The position numbers and the translations under genes were made by a program. A stretch of DNA of 64,000 nt, taken from assembly GCA_030390025.1 (NCBI GenBank), contig JASTWF010000180.1:310001-374000 (forward strand). The letters are read 5' to 3'. The stretch's first letter is position 1. Each line of letters begins with the position of its first letter. This DNA comes from Squalus acanthias. Its lineage: Eukaryota. Below are positions 5,330 to 64,000 of this stretch, piece by piece. The notes below the pieces were generated by a model. It was not told where the DNA came from. It did not search any database and saw only the letters and a list, made by a program, of their open reading frames with translations.

Positions 5330-5500
5330 CACATGCGTTTGCGTGACGAACAGTCGGCCATTTCGCTGTGACGTGCTGCGGTCATGTTTGTGTGACGTAC
5401 AGCCGGCCATGTTTTTGGGACGTGCCGTCGGCCATGTTTGTATGACGTACTGGCGGCCATGATTGGTCCACGTACTGTCGCCCATGTTTGTGTGACGTCT
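5330..5500. repeat. ~26-bp degenerate tandem repeat (cggccatgtttgtgtgacgtac)
   Basis: About 6 units with TGACGT cores; reverse-complement relative at 50540-50710. Confidence 0.7.
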
Positions 5501-6560: not shown

Positions 6561-6599
6561 AGTTTTTGTACAGGGCTGAGACTGCTTTCCATCATTGTG
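6561..6599 (-). promoter_or_regulatory. 23-RSS of V1
   Basis: CACAATG-23 bp-ACAAAAACT immediately after YYCAFSLG. Confidence 0.95.
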
Positions 6600-7069
6600 T
6601 GTCCCAGAGAGAATGCGCAGTAATACACGGCAGCGTCAGTCAGCTGCAGCCCGGAGATGGTTAAACTGGTGAATTTAGTCGAGGTCTTGAGCTCTACAGC
6701 GAAACGGGTTTTCGCAAAATCTGCTTTATCTTCAGCACCGCTCGAGTATTTGTTCAGTATAAACTCGGGCTGTGTGTCTGGGTGTTGTCGGTACCAGTAT
6801 AAATAATAGTAGCGCTGTGTAGTATCATAGGTACAGTTTAAAGTCACCGCTTCTCCTTCTGTCTTAACTGCTGAGGACAGCGGCTGAGTGACAGAATCTC
6901 CAAGACTCAGATCTGAAAAACATGTTCAAACAGAAAAAGATCAGACCGGCGGGTGTTTTAAATTCAGATTCAAACCATGTTAGAAATGAGAGAAAAGATG
7001 AGATGTGTTTGGTCCACAATTACCTGTCAGAAATGCCCCCCACACAGCCCAGATGCTGAGTAGCCGCAT
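6600..7069 (-). CDS. TCR delta/alpha-type V segment (V1), inverted; leader exon 7024-7069, V exon 6600-6912
   Basis: Leader MRLLSIWAVWGAFLT with G|gtaatt donor; tttttcag acceptor; DSVTQPLSSAVKTEGEAVTLNCTY...YLYWYRQHP...LTISGLQLTDAAVYYCAF; open frame; 23-RSS. Confidence 0.93.
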
Positions 7070-7164
7070 TGCCGCTGTCCGCTCTGTAAAAGGGGGGTTG
7101 GATATTTGAAGACACCCGTTCTAAGCCCCGCCCTCAATAATCTGCTGTCGTGTCTCAGGATGCT

Positions 7165-7180
7165 CTCACCTCACTTCCTG
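7165..7180 (-). promoter_or_regulatory. Putative V1 promoter ETS + CRE/decamer-like element
   Basis: CAGGAAGTGAGGTGAG ~100 bp upstream of the V1 ATG. Confidence 0.4.
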
Positions 7181-7854
7181 GTGTCCCCAGTCGTGCTGTG
7201 AGACCGGTAGGTGGTGAGCTGGCTGCCAGTAAATGGAAACACCCCGAACTGGGCCACAGTCAGTGTCCTTATAGGGGATGGGTTAGAGGCCATGTGTGGG
7301 AACGAAACCCTTGTCTGCTAATTGTAACCGGGAAGCTCAGGGATTGTTAATGGTGACAGAAAACATTCCAGCATTAGTGGGACATTCTGAAGGGCAATGG
7401 ACCAAGGGGGAACTTTGTGCTTAGGGATTGTTTTAAAGAACACAATCACTAACTTGTGAAATCAGTTCAATGTGTATAAACTGTCTCTGGCCCAGCAACA
7501 TACACTGATGAATAAAACGCTCTGTACAGGCCGCGATAAAAGGGTCCGGGAAACTGACATGGGAGATGTGAAAAGGGCTGCACAATATTGCAGGCAGGCA
7601 CAGAATGTGCATCAAAAGACAAAAGGGGAGTTAAGGCGCCACAGATGGATGTAGTGAACCACACATGCTGTTGCTGAGAATTTTCTTTTTTTTGCCCTTT
7701 TAAGAATCTCCCTGCGATTCTCGCAGTGGGGGCTGAATTCTTGATTCTGTTTATCGGTGTGAAGGAGCCCTCTGGTGAGCACTAACTGGAACTCTCAGTG
7801 TGGGTTTTTGTGCGGGATCCGCCATATCTCTGCAGCAGTGTGGGGTCAATGGAG

Positions 7855-8222
7855 CACCTTTATCTCTCTCCCTCTGTTCGTGTCTCTCTGTATCACTGTG
7901 CTCAGTCACACCTTTATCTCTCTCCCTCTATTGGTGTCTCTGTATCGCTGTGCTCAGTCACACCTTTATCTCTCTCCCTCTGTTGGTGTGTCTCTCTTTA
8001 TCACTGTACTCAGTCACACCTTTATCTCTCTCTCTCTGTTGGTGTCTCTTTGTATCACTGTGCTCAGTCACACCTTTATCTCTCTCCCTCTGTTGGTGTG
8101 TCTCTCTGTATCACTGTACTCAGTCACACCTTTATCTCTCTCCCTCTGTTGGTGTCTCTCTGTATCACTGTACTCAGTCACACCTTTATCTCTCTCCCTC
8201 TGTTGGTGTCTCTCTTTATCAC
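7855..8222. repeat. 52-54-bp satellite, array 1 left part (RSS-like monomer)
   Basis: Monomer tctctccctctgttggtgtctc(tc)tgtatcactgtgctcagtcacacctttatc. Confidence 0.97.
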
Positions 8223-8405
8223 TGTCGTAAGAATGAGCCTTACGCGTGGTAAACTTAATGTAAGCTTTAATCAACTTAAAACGGTGCTGCATACAAAAGA
8301 GGTCTTACCCTATGCCTCTTCCAGAGCTAACTGATCAGTCCAGTATTTATCCTGGACTGATTACAGGAAGTGATGTCATACAGGAAGCTGAAAAGTGTTA
8401 CCACA
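8223..8405 (-). repeat. 3' LTR of Gypsy element
   Basis: 183 bp, identical to 12460-12642, preceded on the element strand by a G-rich polypurine tract. Confidence 0.95.
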
Positions 8406-8423
8406 TTCTCCCCCCCCAAAAGA

Positions 8424-11400
8424 TTAGGAGGCCGGAATGCTCCCTCCATTTCGTAGCCGTTGGATGAGGGAGAGCCGCACCCGTTTGGGTTCTCGTAGCG
8501 GTAGAGGGCCCCTAGCCCGTTTACCCGCTGCGGGCCATGGACCAGAGTCCGAGTGCTCCAGCCCGCTCTGTGAGGGGTCAGAACGATCCTGACTGTGTAC
8601 TGGTACCCGAATGGGTGTCGGGCAGGGCTGTGGCAGATCCGTTTCTGAGCGTACGGTACAGGGTTGATCGTGGCTGCGCGTGCGAGCCCCGACGGGCTCA
8701 TAGTCAGTCTGCCCCAGGTCGGCACGCTGGAGTGAGGTACCAGCCGGCGTCAGATCCCGATCATGATGAGAGGCACCTGGCAAGCCCAGAGATGTGCCTG
8801 GTACAATATCATCCCCTGGTGTCCCTCTATGTTTCGGCGGGCAGGGAGCCAGATCCCGCAATGACACGGTAGATTCCCGACCGTCAGGATACCGAATATA
8901 GGCGTAGGTAGGGTTGACGTCAGTGAGCTCAACCTCATCTACCAGGGGGTCATTCTTAGACGCCCGGACATATCTTCGGAGTAGCACTGGTCCCGGTGCA
9001 GTCAGCCACGACGGGAGAGATGTCCCATAGGATGAGCGACGCTGAAATCGGAAGAACCGTTCATGAGGCGTCGTATTTGTGGCGGTCGAAAGGAGGGACC
9101 GTGTGGAGTGTAATGCGTCTGGAAGTACTGCTTCCCAATGCTGGTTGGGTAGGCCCCGAGATCTCAAAGCCAGACGTACCGCATTCCAGATGATAGCGTT
9201 AAAACGCTCGACTTGCCCATTCCCAACCGGATGATAAGGCGTCGTTTTGCTGGCAGCAATACCCCGTTCCGAGAGATAGGCCTTGAGTTCTCCCGACATA
9301 AAAGAAGGGCCCCGATCTGAATGAACATAGGATGCCATGCCACAGAAAGCAAATACCTGTTCAAGGCAGCTGATAACCGTGGTTGTCAGCATATTGGGGC
9401 AGGGAAAGGCAAACGGAAAACGAGAATACTCATCAACCATTGTTAATAGATAAGTGTTGCGAGTCGAAGAGGGCAACGGCCCCTTAAAATCGATGCTAAG
9501 CCTTTGCATTGGCTGGGTCGCATGTATGAGTATACCACCCGAGGGGCGGAAAAACCGAGGTTTCAATTCCGCACAGACTCTGCAGTCCGAGCACATCTTC
9601 TTTACATCCCCGGTAGAGAATGGGAGATTTCGGGACCGCACGAAGTGCAGCATGCGAGTAACGCCTGGATGACACAACCCATCATGGATGTCTACGAGCG
9701 TAGAGGGTGCCATGGCGGAGCAGAATGCTCGTGTGAGGGTATCCGGAGCCACATTCTCCTTGCCAGGTCGATAGTGGATGGTGTAACCAAAAGAGGCCAA
9801 TTCCAGCCGCCAAAGCTGGATTTTATTATTTTTAATTTTGGTCCGTTTTCGATTATCGAGCATGAAGGCGACCGATCGCTGGTCCGTGATTAAGGTAAAG
9901 TGCTGGCGAGCCAGGAGATGACTCCACTTCCGTACTGCCTCTATGATGGCTGTAGCTTCTTTCTCGACTGGAGGATAATGTAGCTCAGCCCCTTGAAAAG
10001 TCCTGGACAAAAATGCCACCGGACGACCTTCCTGATTCAGAGTGGCTGAGATTGCCACCTCCGAGGCATCACACTCAACCACGAAAGGAAGACTCTCATC
10101 GATGGAGTGAAGAGCCGCTTTCTCCAACTGCTTTTTCAGGAGGTTAAAGGCTGCAACAGCCGTTGTGTCTAGTGGGAATGTGCTGGCCTTCAGTAGAGGT
10201 TGGATTCGGTCCGAGAAGTTAGGAATCCATTTCGCATAGTATGCAAACAGGCCGAGGGCCCGGCGCAAGGAGGCCGGATTCTTAGGTGGCGGGAGTTCTT
10301 GGAGTGGGCGAAGCCTTTCAGGGTCAGGTTTAATGATGCCATTGCCCACACAATAGCCAAGGATGTTGATAGTTGGTTGTGACTCAATGGATTTAGCCGC
10401 ATTCAATGTCAAATTACGGTGCTGGAGTGCATCCCAAAATCGTTGGAGATTGGCGTCATGTTCCTGCTGATTGCGACCTGCGACAGTAATATTGTCCAGA
10501 TAAGGAAACGTATCCTTCAAGTCTTCCTGTTTGACCAGGTCATCCATTGCTCGCTGGAAGACAGCCACTCCATTAGTGACCCCAAAGGGGAGGCGACGAA
10601 ATTGATACAGCCGCCCATTGGCTTCAAAGGCTGTATACTGCTTGTCTGAGACCTTCAAGGGTACCTGATGATAGGCGCTTTTCAGATCATAAGTCGAGAA
10701 CACCGTGTACTCAGCCAATTTATTAACCATATCATCGATGCGCGGCAATGGGTATGCGTCCAAGTCCGTATACTGATTGATGGTCTGTGAATAGTCAATG
10801 CACAGCCGTTTCTTGTGAGGTTGTAGAGGGTTCTTAACAATAACGACCTGGGCGCGCCATGGCGACGAACAAGGCTCGATGATATCCTCTGCTAAAAGCC
10901 GAGAAATCTCAGCCGCAATAAAAGACTGGTCTTCCTGACTGAAACGGCGTGACTTTGTTATAATCGGTTTGCATCGAGGAGGGATACTGGCAAACAGTGA
11001 GGGTTCATCCAGTGAAGCTGCTGACAAGGCACAGAACGGTAATCGAGGTCGTATATTAGAAATAGTGAGTTCAGGTTTGGATCCGCCGAACTCAATGGTA
11101 AGCTTCTTATGCTGCTTTTGAAAATCCAGCCCTAAGATAAGATCACTACATAAGTCCTTGAGCACCGAAAGCCGGGTGGAGGGATACCTGTGACCTTTAA
11201 GCATTATTTCAACTACACAGAAGCCAGAAATTCTGGTATTAAGTGATGACTGAGCCATCGCAACTGCCTGGTCCGATGGAAAAACATGTAGCTTTAACTG
11301 TGCAACAGTCTGTTCCCTAATGAAACTATCAGTGCTACCTGAGTCAATTAAGGCATCTAAAGTATGTCCTTTAATTGATGCTTTTGGAGCTGCATGGAAT

Positions 11401-12380
11401 AGATTCTGAGGACAAGCAGCTGTAATTGGTGTCGTTGCACAAAGAGTGGCTGAAATTCTAGGTGTGTTTCTTCGAGAAAAAACCCGAGAGGAAGCACGAT
11501 AGTTTTTAGTTGGAACATCCTGATAGGCCCTTACTGGGGCAGTTCGGTAGGACTTAGCTTGATAAGCCCTCGTAGAGGCTCTTGATAGGCAAACCTTTAC
11601 AAAATGACCCTTTTTGTTGCAATGACTGCAAAACGCATTGCGAGCAGGGCAGAATCTCCGAGGGTGAAACTCATCACCACAAAAAAAGCATTTCTTAGAT
11701 TGCCAAGAGGCTGCCACAGTGGGGTCATCATCCTCTTCATCAGTGAAGTCATCAGATCGATCGTCAGGGATAAAGTCCTCCCTAATAGAGTTCACCTGTG
11801 GCCTCTTAAATTGCCTGACTGTAGTTAAGGCAGCAGACCGAGGTCTGGGCACTGTAAAAAGGTCTGCATTTCTTTTTGCCAGATCTAGAGAGCAAGCCAG
11901 GTCATAAGCTCTCTGCAGCTCAAGTGTCTTACTTTCCAGTAGACGCTGGCGTATAAATGGGGAGGCAAGCCCGCAGATGAACGCATCACGGATCATTTCT
12001 TCGCGGTATAGCTCAGCTGAGGCTGCCCGAAAGTTACAGTCCATACTAAGTCTGCGAAGCTCTTGGAGGAATTTATCAATGGATTCCTCCGGCCCTTGTT
12101 GGGCTGTAGCTAGTAGATGTCTAGCATAGACCTCATTCGGTGTCTTAGTATATAGTCTCTTAAGCGTCTGAATTGCCTCCTCATAACTGTCCCAGTCTTC
12201 CACATACTGAAATACATTCGGGGTGACACAGTTGATGAGTATCCGCAACTTTGAGTTATCATCAGCTTTGCAATACTCAAGAAAATTCTCAAACGTGCGA
12301 TACCAGTGTTTCCACACCTTACCGGCTGCTGGGGTGTTTGGGTCCAAGTCAAGACGCGATGGTTTAAGGATGTTTTCCAT
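8424..12380 (-). CDS. Gypsy Gag-Pol polyprotein, 1318 aa
   Basis: Two Zn knuckles (CFFCGDEFHPRRFC, CSHCNKKGHFVKVC), protease LIDSGST, RT (LPFG, YLDN), RNase H VECDAS, integrase HHCC and SIDFKG/HSDRG/GQVER; PR-RT-RH-IN order. Confidence 0.96.
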   Translation of the reverse strand: MENILKPSRLDLDPNTPAAGKVWKHWYRTFENFLEYCKADDNSKLRILINCVTPNVFQYVEDWDSYEEAIQTLKRLYTKTPNEVYARHLLATAQQGPEESIDKFLQELRRLSMDCNFRAASAELYREEMIRDAFICGLASPFIRQRLLESKTLELQRAYDLACSLDLAKRNADLFTVPRPRSAALTTVRQFKRPQVNSIREDFIPDDRSDDFTDEEDDDPTVAASWQSKKCFFCGDEFHPRRFCPARNAFCSHCNKKGHFVKVCLSRASTRAYQAKSYRTAPVRAYQDVPTKNYRASSRVFSRRNTPRISATLCATTPITAACPQNLFHAAPKASIKGHTLDALIDSGSTDSFIREQTVAQLKLHVFPSDQAVAMAQSSLNTRISGFCVVEIMLKGHRYPSTRLSVLKDLCSDLILGLDFQKQHKKLTIEFGGSKPELTISNIRPRLPFCALSAASLDEPSLFASIPPRCKPIITKSRRFSQEDQSFIAAEISRLLAEDIIEPCSSPWRAQVVIVKNPLQPHKKRLCIDYSQTINQYTDLDAYPLPRIDDMVNKLAEYTVFSTYDLKSAYHQVPLKVSDKQYTAFEANGRLYQFRRLPFGVTNGVAVFQRAMDDLVKQEDLKDTFPYLDNITVAGRNQQEHDANLQRFWDALQHRNLTLNAAKSIESQPTINILGYCVGNGIIKPDPERLRPLQELPPPKNPASLRRALGLFAYYAKWIPNFSDRIQPLLKASTFPLDTTAVAAFNLLKKQLEKAALHSIDESLPFVVECDASEVAISATLNQEGRPVAFLSRTFQGAELHYPPVEKEATAIIEAVRKWSHLLARQHFTLITDQRSVAFMLDNRKRTKIKNNKIQLWRLELASFGYTIHYRPGKENVAPDTLTRAFCSAMAPSTLVDIHDGLCHPGVTRMLHFVRSRNLPFSTGDVKKMCSDCRVCAELKPRFFRPSGGILIHATQPMQRLSIDFKGPLPSSTRNTYLLTMVDEYSRFPFAFPCPNMLTTTVISCLEQVFAFCGMASYVHSDRGPSFMSGELKAYLSERGIAASKTTPYHPVGNGQVERFNAIIWNAVRLALRSRGLPNQHWEAVLPDALHSTRSLLSTATNTTPHERFFRFQRRSSYGTSLPSWLTAPGPVLLRRYVRASKNDPLVDEVELTDVNPTYAYIRYPDGRESTVSLRDLAPCPPKHRGTPGDDIVPGTSLGLPGASHHDRDLTPAGTSLQRADLGQTDYEPVGARTRSHDQPCTVRSETDLPQPCPTPIRVPVHSQDRSDPSQSGLEHSDSGPWPAAGKRARGPLPLREPKRVRLSLIQRLRNGGSIPAS

Positions 12381-12459
12381 GATGGGTGATTCCCTGGATC
12401 CTTAGCTCCGAGTTCGTCCAAAAAGTTTGAGTGCGAAGTTTTACAAAAGTTGATTAAAT

Positions 12460-12642
12460 TGTCGTAAGAATGAGCCTTACGCGTGGTAAACTTAATGTAA
12501 GCTTTAATCAACTTAAAACGGTGCTGCATACAAAAGAGGTCTTACCCTATGCCTCTTCCAGAGCTAACTGATCAGTCCAGTATTTATCCTGGACTGATTA
12601 CAGGAAGTGATGTCATACAGGAAGCTGAAAAGTGTTACCACA
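12460..12642 (-). repeat. 5' LTR of Gypsy element
   Basis: 183 bp TG...CA; TATA-like GATAAATA inside a 10-bp inverted repeat; ATTAAA. Confidence 0.95.
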
Positions 12643-15600
12643 ATCACTCTGCTCAGTCACACCTTTATCTCTCTCCCTCTGTTGGTGTCTCTCTGTATCA
12701 CTGTACTCAGTCACACCTTTATCTCTCTCCCTCTGTTGGTGTCTCTCTTTATCAGTCTGCTCAGTCACACCTTTATCTCTCTCCCTCTGTTGGTGTCTCT
12801 CTGTATCACTGTGCTCAGTCACACCTTTATCTGCTTTCCTCTGTTGGTGTCTCTGTATCACTGTACTCAGTCACACCTTTATCTCCTTTCCTCTGTTGGT
12901 GTCTCTGTATCACTGTGCTCAGTCACAGATTTATCACTCTCTCTCTGTTGGTGTCTCTCTGTATCAATGTACTCAGTCACACCTTTATCTCTCTCTCTCT
13001 CTCTGTTGGTGTCTCTCGGTATCACTGTACTCAGTCACATCTTTATCTCTCTCCCTCTGTTGGTGTCTCTCTGTATCACAGTGCTCAGTCACACCATTAT
13101 CTCTCTCCCTCTGTTGGTGTCTCTGTATCACTGAATTCAGTCACACCTTTATCTCACACCTTTATCTCTCTCCCTCTGTTGGTGTCTCTCTGTATCACTG
13201 TGCTCCGTCATACCTTTATTTCTCTCCCTCTGTTGGTGTCTCTGTATCACTGTGCTCAGTCACACCTTTATCTCTCTCCCTCTGTTGGTGTCTCTCTGTA
13301 TCACTGTACTCAGTCACACCTTTATCTCTCTCCCTCTGTTGGTGTCTCTGTATCACTGTGCTCAGTCGCACCTTTATCTCTCTCCCTCTGTTGGTGTCTC
13401 TGTATCACTGTGCTCAGTCGCACCTTTATCTCTCTCCCTCTGTTGGTGTCTCTCTGTATCACAGTGCACAGTCACACCATTATCTCTCTCCTTCTGTTGG
13501 TGTCTCTGTATCACTGTGCTCAGTCACACCTTTATCGCTCTCCCTCTGTTGGTGTCTCTGTATCACTGTGCTCAGTCACACCTTTATCTCTCTCCCTCTG
13601 TTGGTTTCTCTGTATCGCTGTGCTCAGTCACACCTTTATCTCTCTCCCTCTGTTGTTGTCTCTCTGTATCACTGTGCTCAGTCGCACCTTTATCTCTCTC
13701 CCTCTGTTGGTGTCTACTGTAGCACTGTGCTCAGTCACACCTTTATCTCTCTCCCTCTGTTGGTGTCTTTCTGTATCACTGTGCTCAGTTTCACCTTTAT
13801 CTCTCTCCCTCTGTTGGTGTCACTCTGTAGCACTGTGCTCAATCACACCTTTATCTCACTCCCTCTGTTGGTGTCTCACTGTATCACTCTGCTCAGTCGC
13901 ACCTTTATCTCTCTCCCTTTGTTGGTGTCTCTCTTATCACTGTACTCAATCACACCTTTAACTCTCTCTCTCTCTGTTGGTGTCTCTCTGTATCACTGTG
14001 CTCAGTCACACCTTTATCTCTCTCCCTCTGTTGGTGTCTCTCTGTATCACTGTACTCAGTCACACCTTTATCTCTCTCTCTCTGTTGGTGTCTCTCTGCA
14101 TCACTGTGCTCAGTCACACATTTACTCTCTCCCTCTGTTGGTGTCTCTGTATCACTGTATTCAGTCACACTTTTATCTCACACCTTTATGTCTCTCCCTC
14201 TGTTGGTGTCTCTCTGTATGACTGTGCTCAGTCACACCTTTATCTCTCTCCCTCTGTTGGTGTCTCTCTTATCACTGTACTCAATCACACCTTTAACTCT
14301 CTCTCTCTCTGTTGGTGTCCCTCTGTATCACTGTGCTCAGTCACACCTTTATCTCTCTCCCTCTGTTGGTGTCTCTCTGTATCACTGTGCTCAGTCACAC
14401 CTTTATCTCTCTCCCTCTGTTGGTGTCTATCTGTATCACAGTGCTCAGTCACACCATAATCTCTCTCCATCTGTTGGTGTCTCTGTATCACTGTGCTCAG
14501 TCACACCTTTATCTCTCTCCCTCTGTTGGTGTCTCTCTGTATCACTGTACTCAGTCACACCTTTATCTCTCTCCCTCTGTTGGTGTCTCTGTATCACTGT
14601 GCTCAGTCGCACCTTTATCTCTCTCCCTCTATTGGTGTCTCTCTGTATCACTGTGCTCAGTCACACCATTATCTCTCTCCCTCTGTTGGTGTCTCTGTAT
14701 CACTGTACTCAGTCACACCTTTATCTCTCTCCCTCTATTGGTGTCTCTCTGTATCACAGTGCTCAGTCACACCATTATCTCTCTCCCTCTGTTGGTGTCT
14801 CTGTATCACTGTACTCAGTCACACCTTTATCTCTCTCCCTCTATTGGTGTCTCTCTGTATCACAGTGCTCCGTCACACCTTTATCTCTCTCCCTCTGTTG
14901 GTGTCTCTCTGTATCACTGTGCTCAGTCACACCTTTATCTCTCTCCCTCTGTTGGTGTCACTCTGTATCACTGTACTCAGTCACACCTTTATCTCTCTCC
15001 CTCTGTTGGTGTCTCTGTATCACTGTGCTCAGTCACACCTTTATCTCTCTCCCTCTATTGGTGTCTCTCTGTATCACTGTGCTCAGTCACACCATTATCT
15101 CTCTCCCTCTGTTGGTGTCTCTGTATCACTGTACTCAGTCACACCTTTATCTCTCTCCCTCTATTGGTGTCTCTCTGTATCACTGTGCTCCGTCACACCT
15201 TTATCTCTCTCCCTCTGTTGGTGTCTCTGTATCACTGTGCTCAGTCACACCTTTATCTCTCTGCCTCTGTTGGTGTCTCTCTGTATCACTGTACTCAGTC
15301 ACACCTTTATCTCTCTCCCTCTGTTGGTGCCTCTCTGTATCACTGTGCTCAGTCACACCTTTATCTCTCTCCCTCTGTTGGTGTCACTGTATCACTGTTT
15401 TCAGTCACACCTTTATCGCTCTCCCTCTGTTGGTGTCTCTGTATCGCTGTGCTCCGTCACACGTTATCGCTCTCGCTCTGTTGGTGTGTCTTTGTATCAC
15501 TGTGCTCAGTCACACCTTTATCTCTCTCCCTCTGTTGGTATCTCTCTGTATCACTGTGCTCAGTCACACCTTTATCTCTCTCCCTCTGTTGGTATCTCTC

Positions 15601-18600
15601 TGTATCACTGTACTCAGTCACACCGTTATCTCTCTCCCTTTGTTGGTGTCTCTCTTATCACTGTACTCAGTCACAGTTTAACTCTCTCTCTCTCTGTTGG
15701 TGTCTCTCTGTATCACTGTGCTCAGTCACACCTTTATCTCTCTCCCTCTGTTGGTGTCTCTCTGTAGCACTGTGCTCATTCACACCTTTATCTCTCTCCC
15801 TCTGTTGGTGTCTCTCTGTATCACTGTGCTCATTCACACCTTTATCTCTCTCCCTCTGTTGGTGTCTCTCTGTATCACTGTGCTCAGTCTCACCTTTATC
15901 TCTCTCCCTCTGTTGGTGTCACTCTGTAGCACTGTGCTCAATCACACCTTTATCTCACTCCCTCTGTTGGTGTCTCTCTGTATCACTGTAATCAGTCATG
16001 CCTTCATCTCGCGCGCTCTATTGATGTCTCTCTGTATCACTGTACTCAATCACACCTTTATCTCTCTCCCTCTGTTGGTGTCTCTCTGTATCACTGTGCT
16101 CAATCACACCTTTATCTCTCTCCCTCTGTTGGTGTCTCTCTGTATCACTGTGTTCAGTCACACCTTTATCTCTCTCCCTCTGTTGGTGTCTCTCTGTATC
16201 ACTGTGCTCAGTCACACCTTTATCTCTCTCTCTCTGTTGCTGTCTCTCTGTATCACTGTGGTCAGTCACACCTTTATCTCACTCCCTCTGTTGGTGTCTC
16301 ACTGTATCACTGTGCTCAGTCACACCATTATCTCTCTCCCTCTGTTGGTGTCTCTGTATCACTTTGCTCAGTCACACCTTTATCTCTCTCCCTCTGTTGG
16401 TGTCTCTCTGTATCACTGTGCTCCTTCACTCCTTTATCTCTCTCCCTCTGTTGGTTTCTCTCTGTATCACTGTGTTCAGTCACACCTTTGTCTCTCTCTC
16501 TCTCTGTTGGTGTCTCTGGAGCACTGTGCACAGTCGCACCTTTATCTCTCTCCCTCTGTCGCTGTCTCTCTGTATCACTGTGGTCAGTCACACCTTTATC
16601 TCTCTCCCTCTGTTGGTGTCTCTCTGTATCACTGTGCTCAGTCACACCTTTATCTCTCTCCCTCTTTTGGTGTCTATCTGTATCACTGTGCTCAGTCACA
16701 CCTTTATCTCTCTCCCTCTGTTGGTGTCTATCTGTATCACTGTGGTCAGTCACACCTTTATCTCTCTCCATCTGTTGGTGTCTCTGTATCACTGTATTCA
16801 GTCACTCCTTTATCTCTCTCTCTCTGTTGGTGTCTCTGTATCGCTGTGCTCAGTCACACCTTTATCTCTCTCCCTCTGTTGGTGTCTATCTGTATCACTG
16901 TGCTCAGTCACACCTTTATCTCTCTCCCTCTGTTGCTGTCTCTCTGTATCACTGTGGTCAGTCACACCTTTATCTCTCTCCATCTGTTGGTGTCTCTGTA
17001 TCACTGTATTCAGTCACACCTTTATCTCACACCTTTATCTCTCTCCCTCTGTTGGTGTCTCTCTGTATCACTGTACTCAGTCACACCTTTATCTCTCTCC
17101 CTCTGTTGGTGCCTCTCTGTATCACTGTGCTCAGTCACACCTTTATCTCTCTCCCTCTGTTGGTGTCTCTGTATCACTGTTTTCAGTCACACCTTTATCG
17201 CTCTCCCTCTGTTGGTGTCTCTGTATCGCTGTGCTCAGTCACACGTTATCGCTCTCGCTCTGTTGGTGTCTCTTTGTATCACTGTGCTCAGTCACACCTT
17301 TATCTCTCTCCCTCTGTTGGTGTCTCTCTGTATCACTGTGCTCAGTCACACCTTTATCTCTCTCCCTCTGTTGGTGTCTCTGTATCACTGTGCTCAGTCA
17401 CACCTTTATCTCTCTCTCTCTGTTGGTGTCTCTGTATCACTGTGCTCAGTCACACCTTTATCTCACTCCCTCTGTTGGTGTCTCTCTGTATCACTGTGCT
17501 CAGTCACACCATTATCTCTCTCCCTTTGTTGGTGTCTCTCTTATCACTGTACTCAGTCACACCTTTAACTCTCTCTCTCTCTGTTGGTGTCTCTCTGTAT
17601 CACTGTGCTCAGTCACACCTTAATCTCTCTCCCTTTGTTGGTGTCTCTCTTATCACTGTACTCAGTCACACCTTTAACTCTCTCTCTCTCTGTTGGTGTC
17701 CCTCTGTATCACTGTGCTCAGTCACACCTTTATCTCTCTCCCTCTGTTGGTGTCTCTCTCTATCACTGTACTCAGTCACATCTTTATCTCTCTCCCTCTT
17801 TTGGTGTCTCTCTGTACCACTGTGCTCATTCACACCTTTATCTCTCTCTCTCTGTTGGAGTCTCTCTGTATCACTGTGCTCAGTCGCACCTTTATCTCTC
17901 TCCCTCTGTTGGTGTCTCTCTGTATCACCGTGCTCAGTCACACCTTTATCTCTCTCCCTTTGTTGGTGTCTCTCTTATCACTGTACTCAATCACACCTTT
18001 AACTCTCTCTCTCTCCCTCTGTTGGTGTCTCTCTGTATCACTGTACTCAATCACACCTTTAACTCTCTCTCTCTCTGTTGGTGTCTTTCTGTATCACTGT
18101 GCTCAGTCACGCCTTTATCTCTCTCCCTCTGTTGGTGTCTCTCTGTATCACTGTACTCAGTCAAACCTTTATCTCTCTCTCTCTGTTGGTGTCTCTCTGT
18201 ATCACTGTGCTCAGTCTCACCTTTATCTCTCTCCCTCTGTTGGTGTCACTCTGTAGCACTGTGCTCAGTCACAGCTTTATCTTTCTCCCTCTGTTGGTGT
18301 CTCTCTGTATCACTGTGCTCAGTAGCACCTTTATCTCTCTCCCTCTGTTGGTGTCACTCTGTAGCACTGTGCTCAATCACACCTTTATCTCTCTCCCTCT
18401 GTTGTTGTCTCTCTGTATCACTGTGCTCAGTCTCACCTTCATCTCACTCCCTCTGTTGGTGTCTCTGTATCAGTGTGCTCAATCACACCTTTATCTTACT
18501 CCCTCTGTTGGTGTCTCTGTATCACTGTGCTCAGTCACACCTTTATCTTTCTCCCTCTGTTGGTGTCTCTCTGTATCACTGTGCTGAGTCACACCTTTAT

Positions 18601-18955
18601 CTCTCTCCCTCTGTTGGTGTCTCTCTGTATCACTGTGCTCCTTCACTCCTTTATCTCTCTCCCTCTGTTGGTTTCTGTCTGTATCACTGTGCTCAGTCAC
18701 ACCTTTATCTCTCTCTCTCTCTGTTGGTGTCTCTGTATCACTGTGCACAGTCACACGTTTAGTTCTCTCCCTCTGTGTGTCTCTCTGTATCACTGTGCTC
18801 AGTCACAGCTTTATCTCTCTCCCTCTGTTGGTGTCTCTCTGTATCACTGTGCTCAGTCACACCTTTATCTGTCTCCCTCTGTTGGTGTGTCTTTGCATTA
18901 CTGTACTCAGTCATAGCTTCATCTATCTGCCACTGTTCTGTGTATCTCTTTATCA
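12643..18955. repeat. 52-54-bp satellite, array 1 main part (RSS-like monomer)
   Basis: About 115-120 monomers estimated from length; source of all LSHTFISLPLLVSLCITV-type ORFs. Confidence 0.98.
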
Positions 18956-19310: not shown

Positions 19311-19328
19311 TGCCAATAGATGGCGCTC
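19311..19328 (+). promoter_or_regulatory. Putative CTCF site
   Basis: GCCAATAGATGGCGCT resembles core CCASYAGRKGGCRS. Confidence 0.5.
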
Positions 19329-37043: not shown

Positions 37044-37460
37044 ATGAATGTGTTACCCGTCATTGTGCTTCTGCTAGCATGTAGGTCCAGGAACGGTGGC
37101 AAAATAACCTGGCGGCTTTTCCAATTCGCGTTGCTCCCGGAGTTTTAAACAGCTGGATTTTTTTTCACCGGTCGATGGCTCTCCGATCAGGTCCGCCAGT
37201 CCCCCGATTGGAAAACCGTCTAGGCTGTTGATTCGGTGCCGGTGGACTGCAGCTATGACACCTCCAACTTCAATACCATCCTGTGGTACAGGCAGAAATA
37301 CAGCCAGGGACCGGAGAGGATAATAAGAAAAAGGTCTGATGGCAAAGAGAGCCGAGGCCGCTTTGAATCGGATCTTTCCACGGCGGACAAACGCGGGCAA
37401 TTTACCGTTACCAGCACAGATATTTCGGATACCGCAGTTTATTACTGTGCGATGGAGCCG
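37044..37460 (+). pseudogene. V pseudogene (V5), paralog of V4; leader 37044-37080, V exon 37171-37460
   Basis: Leader MNVLPVIVLLLA with T|gtaggt donor; acceptor AG changed to CG (ttcaccg); in-frame TAG at 37221-37223 where V4 has CAG; WYRQ and DTAVYYCAM retained. Confidence 0.9.
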
Positions 37461-37499
37461 CACCCTGACAGGAAACGCGGCAGTCACTGTTCAAAAACC
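37461..37499 (+). promoter_or_regulatory. 23-RSS of V5
   Basis: CACCCTG-23 bp-TCAAAAACC. Confidence 0.85.
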
Positions 37500-37589
37500 T
37501 CGCCCCACTTTAAAATCCTGTAAAGTGTGGTGCAGACATCCGCATTTCTTTCAACTGCAGAAAAAATGCCGGCTCCTGTTCATATGCCC

Positions 37590-38350
37590 CTAGATACAAT
37601 GGGCTGAATGGCCGACTCCTGTTCCTAGATACAATGGGCTGAATGGCCGACTCCTGTTCCATGATACAATGGGATGACTGGTCGACTCCTGTTCTTAGAT
37701 AAAATGGGCTGAATGGCCGACTCCTGTTCCTAGATACAATGGGCTGAGTGGCCGGCTCCTGTTCCTAGATGCAATAGGTTGACTGGCCGACTCATGTTCC
37801 TAGATACAATGGACTGAATGGCCTGTTCCTGTTCCTAGATGCAATAGGTTGACTGGCCGACTCCTGTTCCTAGATAGAATGTGATGAATGGCCGATTCCT
37901 GTTCCTAGTTACAATGGGCTGACTGGCCGACTCCTGTTCCTAGACACAATGGGCTGACTGGCCGACTCCTGTTCCTAGATACAATGGGCTGACTGGCTGA
38001 CTCCTGTTCCTAGATACAATGGGCTGACTGGCCGACTCCTGTTCCTAGATACAATGGGCTGACTGGCCGACTCCTGTTCCTAGATACAATTGGCTGACTG
38101 GCCGACTCCTGTTCCTAGATACAATGGGCTGACTGGCCGACTCCTGTTGCTAGATACAATGGGCTGACTGGCCGACTCCTGTTCCTAGATACAATGGCCT
38201 GAATGGCCTGTTCATGTTCCTAGATACAATGAGCAGAAGCGCCGACTCCTGTGCCTATATTCCTAGATATATTGGGCTGAATAGCCGAATGCAATTCTTA
38301 TGCTCCTAGATACAGTGGACTGAATGGCCGACTCCTGTTCCCATGTTCCT
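37590..38350. repeat. 35-bp minisatellite (tagatacaatgggctgactggccgactcctgttcc)
   Basis: About 20 tandem units; resembles the CR1 3' tail gggccgaatggcctactcctgctcct. Confidence 0.92.
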
Positions 38351-38364
38351 AGAAACAATGAGGG

Positions 38365-44830: not shown

Positions 44831-45231
44831 CTTCATTGCTCGGCAGAGAGATAGAATCAAACGCAGATAGATAGATTCAATAAAAGTTTGACAATCCGAG
44901 GAAACAGTAGTCAATGGAGAAACTATACCTGGAGAAAGTATTATGTAATTTACGCTTTCTGATTTTAAAAGTGTATAATCTGTTTTGTTGCGCTATTTGG
45001 TTTTTAAAATCCTTTACACAGTGTCAATGAAACACTGCAACGTATATTCGACGTACACGTGCATGATTCCGATAATCTATGACCGCTTCTCGTTATTTGA
45101 TAACAGGTTATCACAAACAAGCGATTGGTGGTCAGATAATCCATTATGTGGCGCTATCACCATATGAATGCGTGTGGAAAAATAAACACCAACCAAAATC
45201 GAATCACCATATGACCATTTCAATGGGAAAG

Positions 45232-48200
45232 GTTGGTGTCTCTCTTTATCACTGTAATCAGTTTCACCTTTATCTCTCTCCCTCTTTTGGAGTCTCTCAG
45301 TATCACTCACTGTGCTCAGTCAAACCTTTATCTCTCTCTCTCTGTCGTGTCTCTCTGAATAACTGTGCTCAGTCAAACCTCTAACTCTCTCCCTCTGTTG
45401 GTGTTTCTCTATATCACTGAACTCAGTCACACCTTTATCGCTCTCCCTCTGTTGGTGTCGCTGTGCATCACTGTGCTCAGTCACACCTTTATCTATCTCC
45501 CTCTGTTGGTGTCTCTCTCTATCACTGTGCTCAGTCACACCTTTATCTCTCTCCCTCTGTTGGTGTCTCTGTATCACTGAGCTCAGTTACACCTTTATCT
45601 CTCTCCCTCTGTTGGTGTCTCTCTGTATCACAGTGCTCAGTCACACCTTTATCTCTCACCATCTGTTGGTGTCTCTGTATCACTGAGCTCAGTCACACCT
45701 TTGTCTCTCTCTCTCTGTTGGTGTCTCACTATATCAGTGTGCTCAGTCACACCTTTATCTCTCTCCCTCTGTTGGTGTCTCTGTATCACTGTGCTCAGTC
45801 ACACCTTTGTCTCTCTCTCTCTGTTGGTGTCTCACTATATCAGTGTGCTCAGTCACACCTTTATCTCTCTCCCTCTGTTGGTGTCACTCTGTATCACTGT
45901 GCTCAGTTTCAACTTTATCTCCTTTCCTCTGTTGGTGTCTCTCTGTATCACTGTGCTCAGTCACACCTTTATCTCTCTCTCTCTGTTGGTGTCTCTCTGT
46001 ATCACTGTGCTCAGTCACACCTTTATCGCTCTCCCTCTGTTGGTGTCACTCTGTATCACTGTGCTCAGTTTCAACTTTATCTATCTGCCTCTGATGGTGT
46101 CACTCTGTATAACTGTACTCAGTCACACCTTAATCTCTCTCCCTATGTTGTTGTCTCTCTGTATAACTGTGCTCACTCACACCTTTATCTCTCTCCCTCT
46201 GTTGGTGTCTCTCTCTGTAACACTGTGCTCAGTCACACACTTTTCTCTCTCCCTCTGTTGGTGTCTCTCTCTGTAACACTGTGCTCAGTCACACACTTTT
46301 CTCTCTCCCTCTGTTGATGTCTCTGTATCACTGTACTCAGTCACACCTTCAGATCTGTCCCTCTGTTGGTGTCTCTCTGTTTCTCTGTGCTCAGTCACAT
46401 CTTTATCTTTCTCCCTCAAGGTGTCTCTCTGTATCACTGTGGTCAGTCACATCTTTATCTCCCTCCCTCTGTTGGTGTCTCTCTGCATCACTGTGCTCAG
46501 TCACATCTTTATCTCCCTCCCTCTGTTGGGTTCTCTCTGTATCACTGTGCTCAGTCACACCTTTATCTCTCTCCCTCTTTTGGAGTCTCTCAGTATCACT
46601 CTGCTCAGATTCAACTTTATCGCTCTCCCTCTGTTGATGTCTCTCTCTATCACTGTACTCAGTCACATCCTTATCTCTCTCCCGCTGTTGCTGTTTCTCT
46701 GTATCACTCTGCTCAGTCACACCTTTAACTCTCTCCCTCTGTTGGTGTCTCTCTGTAACACTGTAAACAGTCACAACTTTATCTCTCTCCCTCTGTTGTT
46801 GTCTCTCTGTATTACTGTGCTCAGTCACACCTTCATCTCTCTCCCTCTGTTGGTGTCTCTATTTATCACTGTGCTCAGTTACACCTTTATCTCTCTCCCT
46901 CTGTTGGTGTCTCTGTATCACTGTGCTCAATTATACCTTTATCTCCCTCCCTCTGTTGGTGTCTCTCTGTATCACTGTGCTCAGTCACCCCTTTATCTCT
47001 CTCCCTCTTTTGGAGTCTCTCAGTATCACTCTGCTCAGTTTCAACTTTATCGCTCTCCCTCTGTTGATGTCTCTCTCTATCACTGTACTCAGTCACATCT
47101 TTATCTCTATCCCTCTGTTGGTGTCTCTCTCTATCACTGTAAACAGTCACAACTTTATCTCTCTCCCTTTGTTGGTGTCTCTCTGTATCACAGTGCTCAG
47201 ACACACCTTTATCTCTCTCTCTCTGTTGGTGTCTCTCTGTATCACTGTGCTCAGTCACACCTTTATCTCTCTCTCTCTGTTGGTCTCTCTGTATCACTGT
47301 GCTCAGTCACACCTTTATCTCTCTCCCTCTGTTGATTTCTCTGTATCACTGTGCTCAGTCACACCTTTATCTCTCTCTCTCTGTTGGTGTCTCTGTATCA
47401 CTGTACTCAGTCACACCTTTATCTCTCTCCCTCTGTTGGTCTCTCTGTATCACTGTACTCAGTCACACCTTCAGTTCTGTCCCTCTGTTGGTGTCTCTCT
47501 GTATCACTGGGCTTAGTCACATCTTTATCTCTCTCCCGCTGTTGGTGTCTCTCTGTATCACTGTGCTCAGTTACACCTTTATCTCTCTCCCTCTGTTGGT
47601 TTCTGTCTGTATCACTGTGCTCACTCACACGTTTATCTCTTTCCATCTGTTGTTGTCTCTGTATCACTGTGCTCAGTCACACCTTTATCTCTCTCTCTCT
47701 GTTGGTGTCTCTCTGTATCACTGTGCTCAGTTTCACCTTTATCTATCTGCCTCTGTTGGTGTCTCTCTGTATCACTGTGCTCAGTTTCACCTTTATCTAT
47801 CTGCCTCTGTTGGTGTCTCTCTGTATCACTGTAAACAGTCACAACTTTATCTCTCTCCCTTTGTTGGTGTCTCTCTGTATCACAGTGCTCAGTCACACCT
47901 TTATCTCTCTCCCTCTGTTGGTGTCTCTCTGTATCACTGTGCTCACTCACACCTTTATCTCTCTCCCTCTGTTGGTGCCTCTCTGTATCACTTTGCTCAC
48001 TCACATCTTTATCTCTCTCCCTCTTTTGGTGTCTCTCTCTGTAGCACTGTGCTCAGTCACACCTTTATCTCTCTCCCTCTGTTGATTTCTCTGTATCACT
48101 GTGCTCAGTCACACCTTTATCTCTCTCTCTCTCTGTTGGTGTCTCTGTATCACTGTACTCAGTCACACCTTCAGTTCTGTCCCTCTGTTGGTGTCTCTCT

Positions 48201-49375
48201 GTTTCTCTGTGCTCAGTCACATCTTTATCTCTCTCCCTCAAGGTGTCTCTCTGTATCACTGGGCTTAGTCACATCTTTATCTTTCTCCCTCTGTTGGTGT
48301 CTCTCTGTATCACTGTGCTCTTTATCTCTCTCCCGCTGTTGGTGTCACTGTGCATCACTGTGCTCAGTCACACCTTTATCTCTCTCCATCTGTTGGTATC
48401 TCTCTCTATCACTTTACTCAGTCACACCTTTATCTCCCTCCCGCTGTTGCTGTTTCTCTGTATCACTCTGCTCAGTCACACCTTTAACACTCTCCCTCTG
48501 TTGGTGTCTCTCTGTAACACTGTGCTCAGTCACACCTTTATCTCTCTCCCTCTGTTGGTGTCTCTCTCTATCACTTTACTCAGTCACACCTTTATCTCTC
48601 TCCCTCTGTTGGTGTCTCTCTCTATCACTGTACTCAGTCACACCTTTATCTCTCTCCATTTGTTGGTGTCTCTCTCTATCACTGTGCTCAGTCACTCCTT
48701 TATCTCTCTCCCTCTGTTGGTGTCTCTCAGTATCACTGTGCTCAGTTTCAACTTTATCTCTCTCCCTCTGTTGGTGTCTCTCTGTCTCACTGTGCTCAGT
48801 CACTCCTTTATCGCTCTCCCTCTGTTGGTGTCTCTCAGTATCACTGTGCTCAGTTTCAACTTTATCTCTCTCCCTTTGTTGGTGTCTCTCTGTATCACTG
48901 TGCTCAGTCACACAATTATCTCTCTCCCTCTGTTGGTGTCTCTCTGAATCAGTGTGCTCAGTTTCACCTTTATCTATCTCCCTTTTATTGGTGTCACTCT
49001 GTATCACTGTACTCAGTCACACCTTTATCTATCTCCCTCTGTTGGTGTCTCTCTGTATCACTGTGCTCAGTTTGAACTTTATCTCTCTCCCTCTATTGTT
49101 GTCACTCTGTATCGCTGTACTCAGTCACACCTTTTCTCTCTCCGTCTGTTGGTGTCTCTCTGTATCACTGTGCTCAGTCACTCCTTTATCTCTCTATCGA
49201 TTGGTGTCACTCTGTATCACTGTGCTCAGTCACACCTTTATCTCTCTCCCTCTGTTGGTTTCTCTCTGTATCACTGTGCTCACTCACACCTTTATCTCAC
49301 TGCCTTTGTTGGTATCTCTCTGTATCACTGTACTCAGTCACACCGTTATCTATCTCCCCCTGTTGTTATCTGTGT
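45232..49375. repeat. 52-54-bp satellite, array 2 (same monomer and orientation as array 1)
   Basis: About 75-80 monomers estimated from length, somewhat more diverged than array 1. Confidence 0.97.
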
Positions 49376-50539
49376 GCATTACTCACTTTACTCTGGCATA
49401 CTGTCACTCTGTCGGTTGCAATAATCCTAGTCACTTCCCTTGTTTTCGGCTAAACTTATCGGCCTGGGGCTGTCATTGAGGTCTGCAGCTCCCACAATGC
49501 AGCGCTGTAGAGAAGGTCCCTATCTATGAAATGGGCTGCACTGCACTCTCGGAGAGCTGTTGGCAGCTGTGGACTTCTACAGTTCTTTTAACGAGTACTA
49601 TGTTGTCCCGGCGCGCCACACTTTCCCATTCATCGATTATATGATCGAGCCGCTATTTTGATCGAAATTGAAGCCTCTTTTCCTTTCAATCCAGTTGTTT
49701 CATTTATATAAACTTTAAATATAACTTCTTAACTGTTCTTCACAGTTTATAATGATGATTTAGATTTTGGAATCAAAAACACATTGGCGGAAATATTTCG
49801 TTGGGGTGGATGTCAGCGGTTGCTTTCGGTGGCGGGTCGGCTCGGAATTTCTTTTGATTGCGGGTCAGGAGCATATGGAGGGAGTCATGGGAGAGCCTGG
49901 GTGCAGCTGTGCATCTTTGTGCAGTGCTTGTCAGTGTTTGCAGCACCTCAATGCTGTAGAACACACAAAGCACAACTGCCAATACCAATTTGCGCATGGT
50001 CCCTTTAATGAAACAGGCTGATGAAAGGATTAATTAATAATCTTGTAGTAAAGGGGCCTTTAGGGAAGTGTGACCATAATATTGTAGATTTTATAATGAG
50101 TTTGATTTTGATTTCGTTAAATCGGAAACTAGGGTCTTAAATCTAAACAAAGCAAACTACGTAGGTATGAGGAGCGAGTTGGCTAAGGTAGATTGAAAAA
50201 CTACATTAAAAGTTATGATGGTAGACAAGTAATGGCTAGCATTTAAATAATTAATGCATAATTTACATAAAATATACATTCCTTTAAGGCACATAAACCC
50301 CACAGGAAAAGTGGTCCAACCGTGGCTAACAAGAGAAGTTAAATATAGTATTAGATCAAATGAAGAGTATTATAATAAAGGAAATAGAGGGTTATGCTGA
50401 GAGAATTAGCTTAAGAAAGACAGCAGGAGGCTCGAGTGGAGCATAAACGTCGGCATGGTCTGGTTTGGCCGAGTGGCCTGTTTCTGTACCTTATATCCTA
50501 TATAATCCTATGTAAGCTGCCTCAATGCGCAACATTTTA

Positions 50540-51645: not shown

Positions 51646-51840
51646 AGTCTGGGTATCTTGTTGCAAAGTCTGGGTATCTTGTTGCAAAGTCTGGGTATCT
51701 TGTTGCAAAGTTTGGGTATCCTATTGCAAAGTCTGGGAATCTTTTTCATAAGTCTTGATATCTTTGTTAAAAAGTCTGTGTATCCTATTGCAAAGTCTGG
51801 TGATTTTGTTACAAATACTTGGTATACTGTTGCAAAGATT
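51646..51840. repeat. 21-bp tandem repeat (agtctgggtatcttgttgcaa)
   Basis: About 9 units decaying to the right. Confidence 0.85.
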
Positions 51841-52001
51841 CGTTCTTTGTTTCAAATACTGGATTGAAACGGGAGGTCCAAACCGGATATATGTGGTAAA
51901 CAATAGATGGGGACAGTGGTACAGAGCGGGACCTACCTGCACCTTCTCACAGAACATTGCTGTTGTTGGTCCCACACCAGTAGCTTGATAAAATTCTCCA
52001 A

Positions 52002-52797: not shown

Positions 52798-52836
52798 CAC
52801 AGCCCTGCACACACCGCCTAAAGCAGCACAAAAACA
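52798..52836 (+). promoter_or_regulatory. 23-RSS of V6
   Basis: CACAGCC-23 bp-ACAAAAACA. Confidence 0.92.
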
Positions 52837-63972: not shown

Positions 63973-64000
63973 CACAGCCAGAGGAACACCAGCTGAGCTG
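63973..64000 (+). promoter_or_regulatory. RSS of V7 (truncated by window end)
   Basis: CACAGCC heptamer; no nonamer at 12 bp, so the spacer is probably 22-23 bp. Confidence 0.7.

Follow-up and report, generated by a model that had tools for sequence, protein, structure and literature searches.

RIC-passing cryptic recombination signals occur in mammalian DNA at ~5e-4 per bp, a satellite included. The tandem unit of the mouse γ-satellite (Cowell et al. 2003, PMC2193808), like the 54-bp shark repeat described here, holds an RSS-like site. In that study, γ-satellite signals recombined in plasmids at 0.02-0.6% (2/3 tested) and the satellite underwent RAG-dependent breaks in a cell line; its authors already suggested that the satellite offers RAG a substrate, or a safe place to break DNA. 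Table III of the same paper reports activities of 0.03-0.6% for five of six cryptic signals embedded in VH genes, that of 3H9 being undetectable; one VH signal with a 1/9 nonamer, whose last four bases are those of the 54-bp unit, reached 0.6% recombination in plasmids. Germline-joined immunoglobulin genes (Lee et al. 2000, PMC2193156) provide a precedent for RAG-like rearrangement fixed in the shark germline.

Here, the window (the whole 64,000-nucleotide stretch of Squalus acanthias DNA that was analysed) contains two arrays of a 54-bp unit that resembles a 12-RSS on its minus strand. We consider it likely that these are an ordinary 54-bp minisatellite whose cryptic 12-RSS is accidental and weak, a kind already known from mouse.

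A sequence-only reading of this DNA had taken 7855-18955 (array 1) for one continuous satellite. This is not the case; 8223-12642 is an LTR retrotransposon, and the span is made up of 0.37 kb of repeat, a 4.4-kb Ty3/Gypsy element and 6.3 kb of repeat. Period 54 is thus found in two stretches of array 1: a proximal part (~7855-8222, minus strand) with ~6.8 copies of the unit and an abrupt end at 7855, and a main part (12643-18955, minus strand) with ~117 copies and a degenerate end near 18.9-19.0 kb. The inserted Ty3/Gypsy-type element, on the minus strand, is intact and very recent: its LTRs (8223-8405 and 12460-12642) are identical, 183 bp each and bounded by TG...CA, its target duplication is 5 bp (ATCAC), and a single ORF (8424-12401, 1325 aa) encodes protease, RT, RNase H and integrase, with the domain order of Ty3/Gypsy. 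Array 2 (45232-49400, minus strand) has ~77 copies of the same unit in the same orientation and is more diverged than array 1; no RSS was found at its ends.

The arrays have the make-up of a minisatellite, with head-to-tail units in the 10-100 bp class, kilobase lengths and interspersed variant units. The unit itself is a GA/CA-rich degenerate dinucleotide repeat (period-2 identity 28/54); an internal subrepeat was not significant (95 of 200 shuffles were equal or better), and three 67-mers among the units are 13-bp internal duplications. The window holds about ten tandem-repeat families. Kinship of the 54-bp unit with the window's other tandem repeats was likewise not significant (best 29/500). 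Arrays 1 and 2 have unrelated flanks, whose similarity scores are reached by 6 of 100 shuffles on the 5′ side and 65 of 100 on the 3′ side, and a segmental duplication of a V-plus-array cassette is unsupported. Because the flanks are unrelated, two arrays 26 kb apart at one locus suggest that the unit may belong to a family dispersed genome-wide.

The setting among V genes with 23-RSSs, as originally proposed, is borne out. We take the cluster to be of the chondrichthyan TCRα/δ type, judging by the kind of sequence and by PMC12227049. The nearest neighbour of array 1 is the TCRα/δ-type exon V1 (6561-6925, minus strand; 23-RSS 6561-6599). On the plus strand lie V2 (24887-25220; 23-RSS 25182-25220), V3 (26228-26661; 23-RSS 26623-26661), V4 (33678-34061; 23-RSS 34023-34061), V5 (37185-37499; 23-RSS 37461-37499), which has an in-frame stop near its start, and V6 (52412-52836; 23-RSS 52798-52836). 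All six exons scanned match the V-set domain. The V1 protein is 69% identical to a Chiloscyllium protein and 54-59% to Callorhinchus proteins; its matches carry no more specific name than "hypothetical protein" or "Ig-like domain". A further genuine but V-less signal, the orphan RSS (7803-7842, minus strand), has the heptamer CACACTG, a 24-bp spacer and a perfect nonamer, a quality reached by 1 of 1000 shuffles of non-satellite sequence. The nonamers of the V-type signals (six complete and the orphan) match at 7-9/9, and all have A at position 6.

The unit's minus strand had been read as a perfect heptamer, a 12-bp spacer and a 5/9 nonamer, and this arrangement is indeed present in 12643-18955. 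Among its 116 minus-strand units, 69 have CACAGTG and 81 have any CAC; in 41 of the 69 perfect-heptamer units the nonamer ACCAACAGA (5/9) lies exactly 12 bp past the heptamer. The combination of perfect heptamer, 12-bp spacing and at least 5/9 nonamer is kept in 47 of the 115 complete units. Of the others, 22 have the heptamer but a nonamer that is displaced or poorer, 12 carry a different heptamer that includes CAC, and 34 lack CAC. Two A-tract variants carrying ACCAAAAGA, at 16663-16690 and 17797-17824 (both minus strand), were correctly identified before. They are the best and second best 12-cRSS variants (heptamer 7/7 and nonamer 6/9 in each, with A at 4-7 in the first), and they alone among the 69 perfect-heptamer units have A at nonamer positions 5-7. 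The 52-bp monomers and CAC-less variants described earlier are also real: 29 of the 116 units are 52-mers, having lost two spacer bases, and 27 start with TACAGTG. The usual unit has C at nonamer positions 3 and 6, the second of which was the subject of an earlier caveat. Minus-strand sites with a perfect heptamer and at least a 5/9 nonamer at 12 bp number 78 in 10.9 kb of satellite, versus 1 in the 52 kb elsewhere, and no 12-RSS with three or fewer mismatches was found in the window outside the arrays. A purine-A/T-purine motif at nonamer positions 4-6 is present in 2 of these 78 satellite sites and absent from the common nonamer. The coding flank of each unit's heptamer is the previous repeat unit; no D, J or V coding segment adjoins. 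A 23-type reading of the unit gave nonamers of only 1-3/9.

The 54-bp unit shares its first 14 nt, and 20/28 overall, with the 12-RS of mouse Vκ4-86 (Cowell 2003 Table I). In the standard pJH290 12-RS the first spacer base is C rather than A, and the claim that the unit's spacer start is that of the consensus was not found in the literature searched. The unit also holds a quasi-palindrome (8/11, zero-loop) centred exactly on the cut site, a signal-joint-like arrangement. Its back-facing heptamer matches at 5/7 and starts with something other than CAC in 109 of 111 cases, and the back-facing arm has nonamers of at most 2/9 at six spacings (11-13 and 22-24). A dimer of the unit folds at z = -4.6, a result to be expected of any palindrome-bearing tandem repeat.

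How far this resemblance exceeds chance was judged against 200,000 circular dinucleotide shuffles of one 54-bp unit. A perfect heptamer appeared in 7.9% of these, a heptamer with at least a 5/9 nonamer at 12 or 23 in 1.1%, a CAC site with at least 12/16 matches in 1.9%, a match of at least 20/28 to Vκ4-86 in 0.05% (99/200,000), and the 13-mer in 0.013%, all for features chosen post hoc, after the sequence was seen. Among 100,000 shuffles, 520 gave an 8/11 zero-loop palindrome and 9 combined heptamer, back heptamer and at least a 5/9 nonamer; a 5/7 back arm occurred in 91 of 7850 heptamer-bearing shuffles. The usual 54-bp unit scores 12/16 as an RSS, versus 11/16 for a 27-mer repeat at 8-570. 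The likeness to a 12-RSS goes beyond what chance mostly yields, and this, like the palindrome on the cut site and the genuine RSS 12 bp from array 1, weighs against an accident; the statistics are post hoc, however, and an accidental likeness is the best explanation.

Published comparisons bear on whether such sites could be cut. We lean towards the view that ~40% of units would be weak RAG substrates on naked DNA, much as the mouse γ-satellite and VH-embedded cryptic signals are, with recombination of the order of 0.1-1%, and the unit's RIC12 may pass the physiological threshold (about -40), judging from the comparison that Table III of PMC2193808 allows. In SARP-seq, CACAGTG-AT ranks second among AT-spacer heptamers (PMC9723617 Table 1). 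A change of A to C at nonamer position 3 nearly abolished paired-complex formation in single-molecule assays (PMC7337519), and this change is present in every common unit. The 1000 top-ranked nonamer predictions in PMC12711392 (Table S2), a study whose screen used a 23-RSS and mouse RAG, include neither ACCAACAGA nor ACCAAAAGA.

The pattern of variation among units argues for the ordinary minisatellite. Heptamer C1 is the most substituted of the 54 columns in array 1 (34/120 units) and the second most substituted in array 2 (17/76), and two spacer bases are lost from 32 of 120 and 10 of 76 units, respectively. In each array the heptamer T variant is found beside an intact spacer as well as beside a shortened one, and among head-to-tail units all combinations of C>T at the heptamer and GA-slippage in the spacer occur. 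Pointing the other way, column variation in the nonamer of array 1 is lower than in the rest of the unit (0.020 versus 0.045), though its positions that depart from the consensus vary no more than those that match it; in array 2 the gap is small (0.059 versus 0.073). At the edges of both arrays, the last units that can still be recognised begin with T rather than C. No purifying selection is evident on CAC or spacer length. There is no sign of selection for RSS likeness: C1 heads the substituted columns of array 1, spacers are shortened, only 47 of 115 units are intact and only two have A-tracts. We propose that slippage, unequal exchange and gene conversion drive both the growth of the arrays and the mixing of their units, with the RSS likeness unselected. 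In thymocytes, units would at most form rare non-productive joins with neighbouring V 23-RSSs: V2-V5 with array 2 would give deletional, J-like joins, and V1 with array 1 an inversion.

Searches with the unit returned no close relative. Translated in the minus frame, the repeat gave 0 of 5568 candidates at E ≤ 1e-5; in the plus frame, three weak matches were found among 8000 scored, none close; against representatives there were 11 matches at E ≤ 1e-3 and none at 1e-10. Prokaryotic genomes scanned with the unit gave 0 matches, as did Rfam at gathering scores. Six pieces of the unit searched as text had no literature match, and no publication on the 54-bp unit or on an RSS-derived satellite was found in the literature outside subscription journals.

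An alternative that we consider unlikely is that the unit is a RAG fossil: a 12-RSS, or a signal joint formed head-to-head by a 12-RSS and a second, truncated signal, that was captured by the germline, was amplified and is now decaying without function. The likeness to a physiological 12-RS (14 nt identical, 20/28 overall), the quasi-palindrome at the cut site with its 5/7 back heptamer, the position in an antigen-receptor locus and RAG-like joining in shark germ cells (PMC2193156) all point this way. However, the back arm lacks a nonamer, the departure from consensus is in the nonamer rather than the spacer, and a full 12+23 joint would be 67 bp, not 54, with the 67-mers being internal duplications. 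The T that begins the outermost recognisable units and the post hoc nature of the test statistics also tell against it.

The junction of array 1 with the orphan RSS raises a related question. Array 1 stops 12 bp from this signal, and the intervening 12 nt (7843-7854, minus strand) probably once formed the 3′ end of a V exon that has been lost. The presumed Cys codon lies 16 nt from the orphan heptamer, versus 13-20 in V1-V6, and the segment has a weak likeness to the end of V6 (13/200 shuffles); no V-exon remnant upstream of array 1 was present among the tblastn and blastn matches listed. A GTG in the Cys codon may have served as the microhomology at which exon and repeat were joined. On this view, one end of a germline deletion lay in array 1, and its repair at this short microhomology would have removed the exon and left the RSS at 7803-7842. 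It seems to us quite unlikely that the junction (7843-7855) is instead a germline RAG hybrid joint that deleted the V exon, in which an intact signal end met a satellite coding end that had lost 8 nt, with 12 nt added between them. The array signal and the orphan RSS have one orientation, so that the sequence removed by a hybrid joint would be precisely the exon that is missing; moreover, the presumed break falls at the cut site of a cryptic heptamer in V framework 3, and germline joining is known in sharks (PMC2193156). Against this, the same source reports little TdT activity in shark germline joints, which makes an addition of 12 nt unlikely. This short stretch can be read as a V 3′ end, which the Cys-heptamer distance and V6 likeness fit, and the GTG microhomology accounts for the join without RAG.

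Still less credence belongs to an origin in the terminal inverted repeat (TIR) or hairpin of a DNA transposon (Transib/RAG-like or MITE), although it would explain both heptamer and palindrome. The ends of Transib elements look like RSS heptamers. Tandem-repeat units are known to arise from TIRs (PMC9659126), and the 8/11 palindrome is rare in shuffles, with the dimer fold (z = -4.6) in keeping. However, no transposase ORF was noticed beside either array in the window's ORF list, and the array flanks have nothing in common. Decidedly improbable is a composite history in which a RAG signal joint or 12-RSS was fixed in the shark germline, amplified in the TCRα/δ V region and is still RAG-reactive, a germline reaction having deleted the V exon and left 7803-7842.

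Maintenance of the arrays as a functional RAG sink or a V-deletion/editing substrate, as the sequence-only reading suggested, is highly improbable. The concentration of sites (78 in 10.9 kb of satellite versus 1 in 52 kb elsewhere), the J-cluster-like convergence of array 2 with V2-V5 and the fact that poor nonamers still work in plasmids (PMC2193808) are consistent with it. However, few features of the unit are as poorly conserved as CAC and spacer length, array 1 holds a retrotransposon, and joins would yield neither a J nor a product. The 12/23 rule would keep recombinase bound at a J (12-RSS) from pairing with 12-type sites, and cryptic sites in convergent orientation are the ones that scanning favours (PMC13190342). 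What survives of the 12-RSS reading is a likeness above shuffles, the 23-RSS V setting and plausible weak cleavability. Neither an amplified D/J-type RSS nor a functional sink is supported: no D or J coding sequence adjoins, CAC and spacer length show no purifying selection, the nonamers lie outside the top 1000, and the common one lacks the motif at positions 4-6. Finally, the unit's plus strand reads SLYHCA, much like VYYCA (the antisense of which is a known VH cryptic heptamer), but descent from a V-exon 3′ end is effectively refuted: despite matches of 11/12 nt to the V6 YYCA codons and 11-15/24 nt to V1-V7, 738 of 1000 shuffled units score as well with a profile HMM of 15 V sequences, 4467 of 5000 shuffles do as well with a framework-3 PSSM, and DNA similarity of the unit to seven V+RSS regions is not significant after correction (best 15/500, 13 targets).

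If the ordinary minisatellite is the right explanation, the consequences are small: satellites with cryptic recombination signals are known, and a shark example among V genes is added. The arrays nevertheless offer a neat way to ask whether ~80 weak 12-type sites, clustered within an antigen-receptor locus, attract off-target RAG cuts. An origin from germline RAG products, if true, would mean that V(D)J products can seed satellite DNA and reshape the germline V repertoire, that a satellite born from V(D)J recombination now prunes that repertoire, and would bear on the extent of RAG action in shark germ cells.

Compared with known systems, the unit shares a perfect heptamer and a 12-bp spacer with physiological 12-RSSs (mouse Vκ4-86; Jα and Dδ type), but it differs from them in its 5/9 nonamer, its C at positions 3 and 6, the absence of a gene segment, its tandem arrangement and its lack of selection. 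As in V(D)J signal joints (PMC6509286), two arms that resemble heptamers meet at its cut site; unlike them, its second arm is 5/7 and has no nonamer, and 54 bp is too short for 12+23. The 12-type cryptic signals of VH replacement resemble it in that ATACA follows the heptamer and the nonamer is poor and ends in CAGA or CAGC (PMC2193808 Table III), yet VH-embedded signals are single-copy by-products of YYC codons, and a V-exon origin is unsupported for the 54-bp unit. Germline-joined shark immunoglobulin genes are V-J coding joints with little N addition, whereas here a repeat abuts an orphan RSS across 12 nt. The mouse γ-satellite (PMC2193808) has a 234-bp, 23-type unit, in which nonamers are good but heptamers imperfect, and accounts for ~6% of the mouse genome; the shark repeat, in contrast, is a 54-bp, 12-type unit with a perfect heptamer and a weak nonamer, lying among V genes with 23-RSSs.

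A cluster of antigen-receptor V genes from a cartilaginous fish makes up the window. All six V exons scanned in it match Pfam V-set, and a seventh (V7, 63670-64000) lies at the right edge, its RSS extending past that edge. Six V exons carry 23-spacer RSSs with nonamers at 7-9/9, that of V1 being at 6561-6599 on the minus strand. The V1 protein shares 69% identity with a Chiloscyllium protein and 54-59% with Callorhinchus proteins, and we take it to be TCRα/δ-type. In elasmobranchs, V exons of TCRαδ and intermediate type are located in a single complex (PMC12227049); V6 (52412-52836) and V7 resemble Ig more than V1 and V3 do and may be the Ig/TCR-intermediate V types known from elasmobranchs. 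V5 (37185-37499) resembles V4, but its heptamer (CACCCTG) is weaker and an in-frame stop falls near the beginning of the exon; it is probably a pseudogene. Outside the repeats, an RSS scan of the window found no D, J or good 12-RSS. Two N gaps lie at ~26747-27620, just downstream of V3, on either side of GATA/GACA repeats (737 N in the whole window).

Tandem Repeats Finder places period-54 arrays at 7855-8225 and 12643-18955 (array 1) and at 45232-49365 (array 2). The sequence-only reading had described array 1 as a single satellite span, 7855-18955; the repeat does occupy both ends, but 8223-12642 is an intact Ty3/Gypsy-type LTR retrotransposon whose two 183-bp LTRs do not differ from each other; it has an ATCAC target duplication, and its single 1325-aa ORF encodes protease, RT, RNase H and integrase. 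The insertion is very recent, and it shows that array 1 was formerly continuous; its target duplication coincides in part with where the heptamer of one repeat unit lies. The 12-RSS-like motif is present as that reading claimed: 69 of the 116 main-block units have a perfect heptamer, ACCAACAGA follows after 12 bp in 41 of those 69, and two ACCAAAAGA variants lie at 16663-16690 and 17797-17824. The low-coordinate ends of both arrays are abrupt, with CCATTGA within ~5 nt of each junction (7846-7852 and ~45221-45227, minus strand), and the opposite ends are degenerate, with a GTAATGCA variant common to both; these shared features could be chance or a clue to array seeding. Unrelated tandem repeats of 27, 25, 35/43 and 21 bp occupy 8-570, 5337-5498, 37589-38362 and 51646-51842. 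CTCF-like 14-mers occur at 19313-19326, 45141-45154 and 28722-28735, two of them close to array ends; the 19 matches across the window are not above chance (6/100 shuffles).

How strong is the resemblance? The unit is identical to the mouse Vκ4-86 12-RS over the first 14 nt and at 20/28 positions overall (sequence from Cowell 2003, Table I, PMC2193808). When one unit was put through 200,000 rounds of circular dinucleotide shuffling, 7.9% of the products had a perfect heptamer, 1.1% a heptamer plus at least a 5/9 nonamer, 0.05% at least 20/28 to Vκ4-86, and 0.013% the 13-mer. Because unit copies are not independent, the array is one count. The features were chosen post hoc, the window holds ~10 repeat families, and the unrelated 27-mer array (8-570) has an RSS-like score of 11/16 versus 12/16 for the 54-bp unit; the resemblance is thus unusual, not compelling.

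Among the columns of array 1, the first heptamer position carries the most substitutions (34/120); in array 2 it ranks second (17/76). Two spacer bases are missing in 32/120 and 10/76 units, respectively, both arrays show all combinations of the two changes, and only 47/115 main-block units keep the full layout. Counting against an absence of selection, variation in array 1 is 0.020 in nonamer columns versus 0.045 elsewhere; its non-consensus nonamer bases are as fixed as the consensus ones, and in array 2 the difference is small. Nonamer positions 4-6 follow the purine-A/T-purine rule described in PMC12711392 in only 2 of 78 satellite sites, and neither satellite nonamer appears in the top-1000 table of that paper. 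The two arrays, both in one locus, have the unit in common but differ in their flanks, as would fit a dispersed minisatellite. No close relatives of the unit were found in protein and prokaryote collections, Rfam or paper text; such sets are ill-adapted to finding a shark repeat that does not code for protein, so the blank searches carry little weight. We consider it likely that this is an ordinary minisatellite bearing a real motif, whose 12-RSS likeness is fortuitous and unselected.

A genuine orphan RSS that the sequence-only reading had not noticed (7803-7842, minus strand; 6/7 heptamer, 24-bp spacer, 9/9 nonamer) lies 12 nt from the array-1 end; one this good arose in 1/1000 shuffles. V1 and this RSS (6561-7842) are inverted relative to V2-V7 (24887-64000), so orientation switches between ~8 and ~25 kb, across array 1. 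Among the matches listed there is no V exon upstream of the orphan RSS; the presumed Cys codon is 16 nt from its heptamer, versus 13-20 nt in V1-V6. The intervening 12 nt (7843-7854) fit a V 3' end joined to the array at GTG microhomology. A germline RAG hybrid joint predicts an identical junction layout, and sharks are known to have germline joining, although the same source (PMC2193156) gives low TdT activity in such joints; we regard this origin as improbable. The unit also holds an 8/11 palindrome, likewise unnoticed before, centred exactly at the heptamer 5' edge, and it therefore resembles a signal joint. A 5/7 heptamer forms the back arm (91/7850 heptamer-bearing shuffles), and back arm, heptamer and nonamer occur jointly in 9/100,000 shuffles; the unit nevertheless does not qualify as a signal joint, as the back arm has neither CAC nor nonamer and a 12+23 joint would need more than 54 bp. 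A V-exon origin of the unit and its membership among physiological 12-RSSs were tried and rejected.

An ordinary minisatellite with a chance motif is the reading we prefer; its unit may function as a cryptic 12-RSS, and RAG could possibly cut it, weakly. The data on this point all come from mammalian RAG. Two results favour cleavability: SARP-seq, run with a consensus nonamer, ranks CACAGTG-AT second among AT-spacer heptamers (PMC9723617), and a VH cryptic signal whose 1/9 nonamer has the same CAGA end recombines at 0.6% versus ~31% for Vκ4-86 (PMC2193808). Against it, a poor cryptic nonamer lowers output to 1% of reads (PMC9723617), and changing A to C at the third nonamer position leaves almost no paired complexes (PMC7337519). 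The unit is perhaps weakly cleavable; by geometry, array 2, facing V2-V5 like a J cluster, would yield deletion, and array 1, co-oriented with V1, inversion. That a satellite could serve as RAG substrate or safe sink has already been proposed in print for mouse γ-satellite (PMC2193808).
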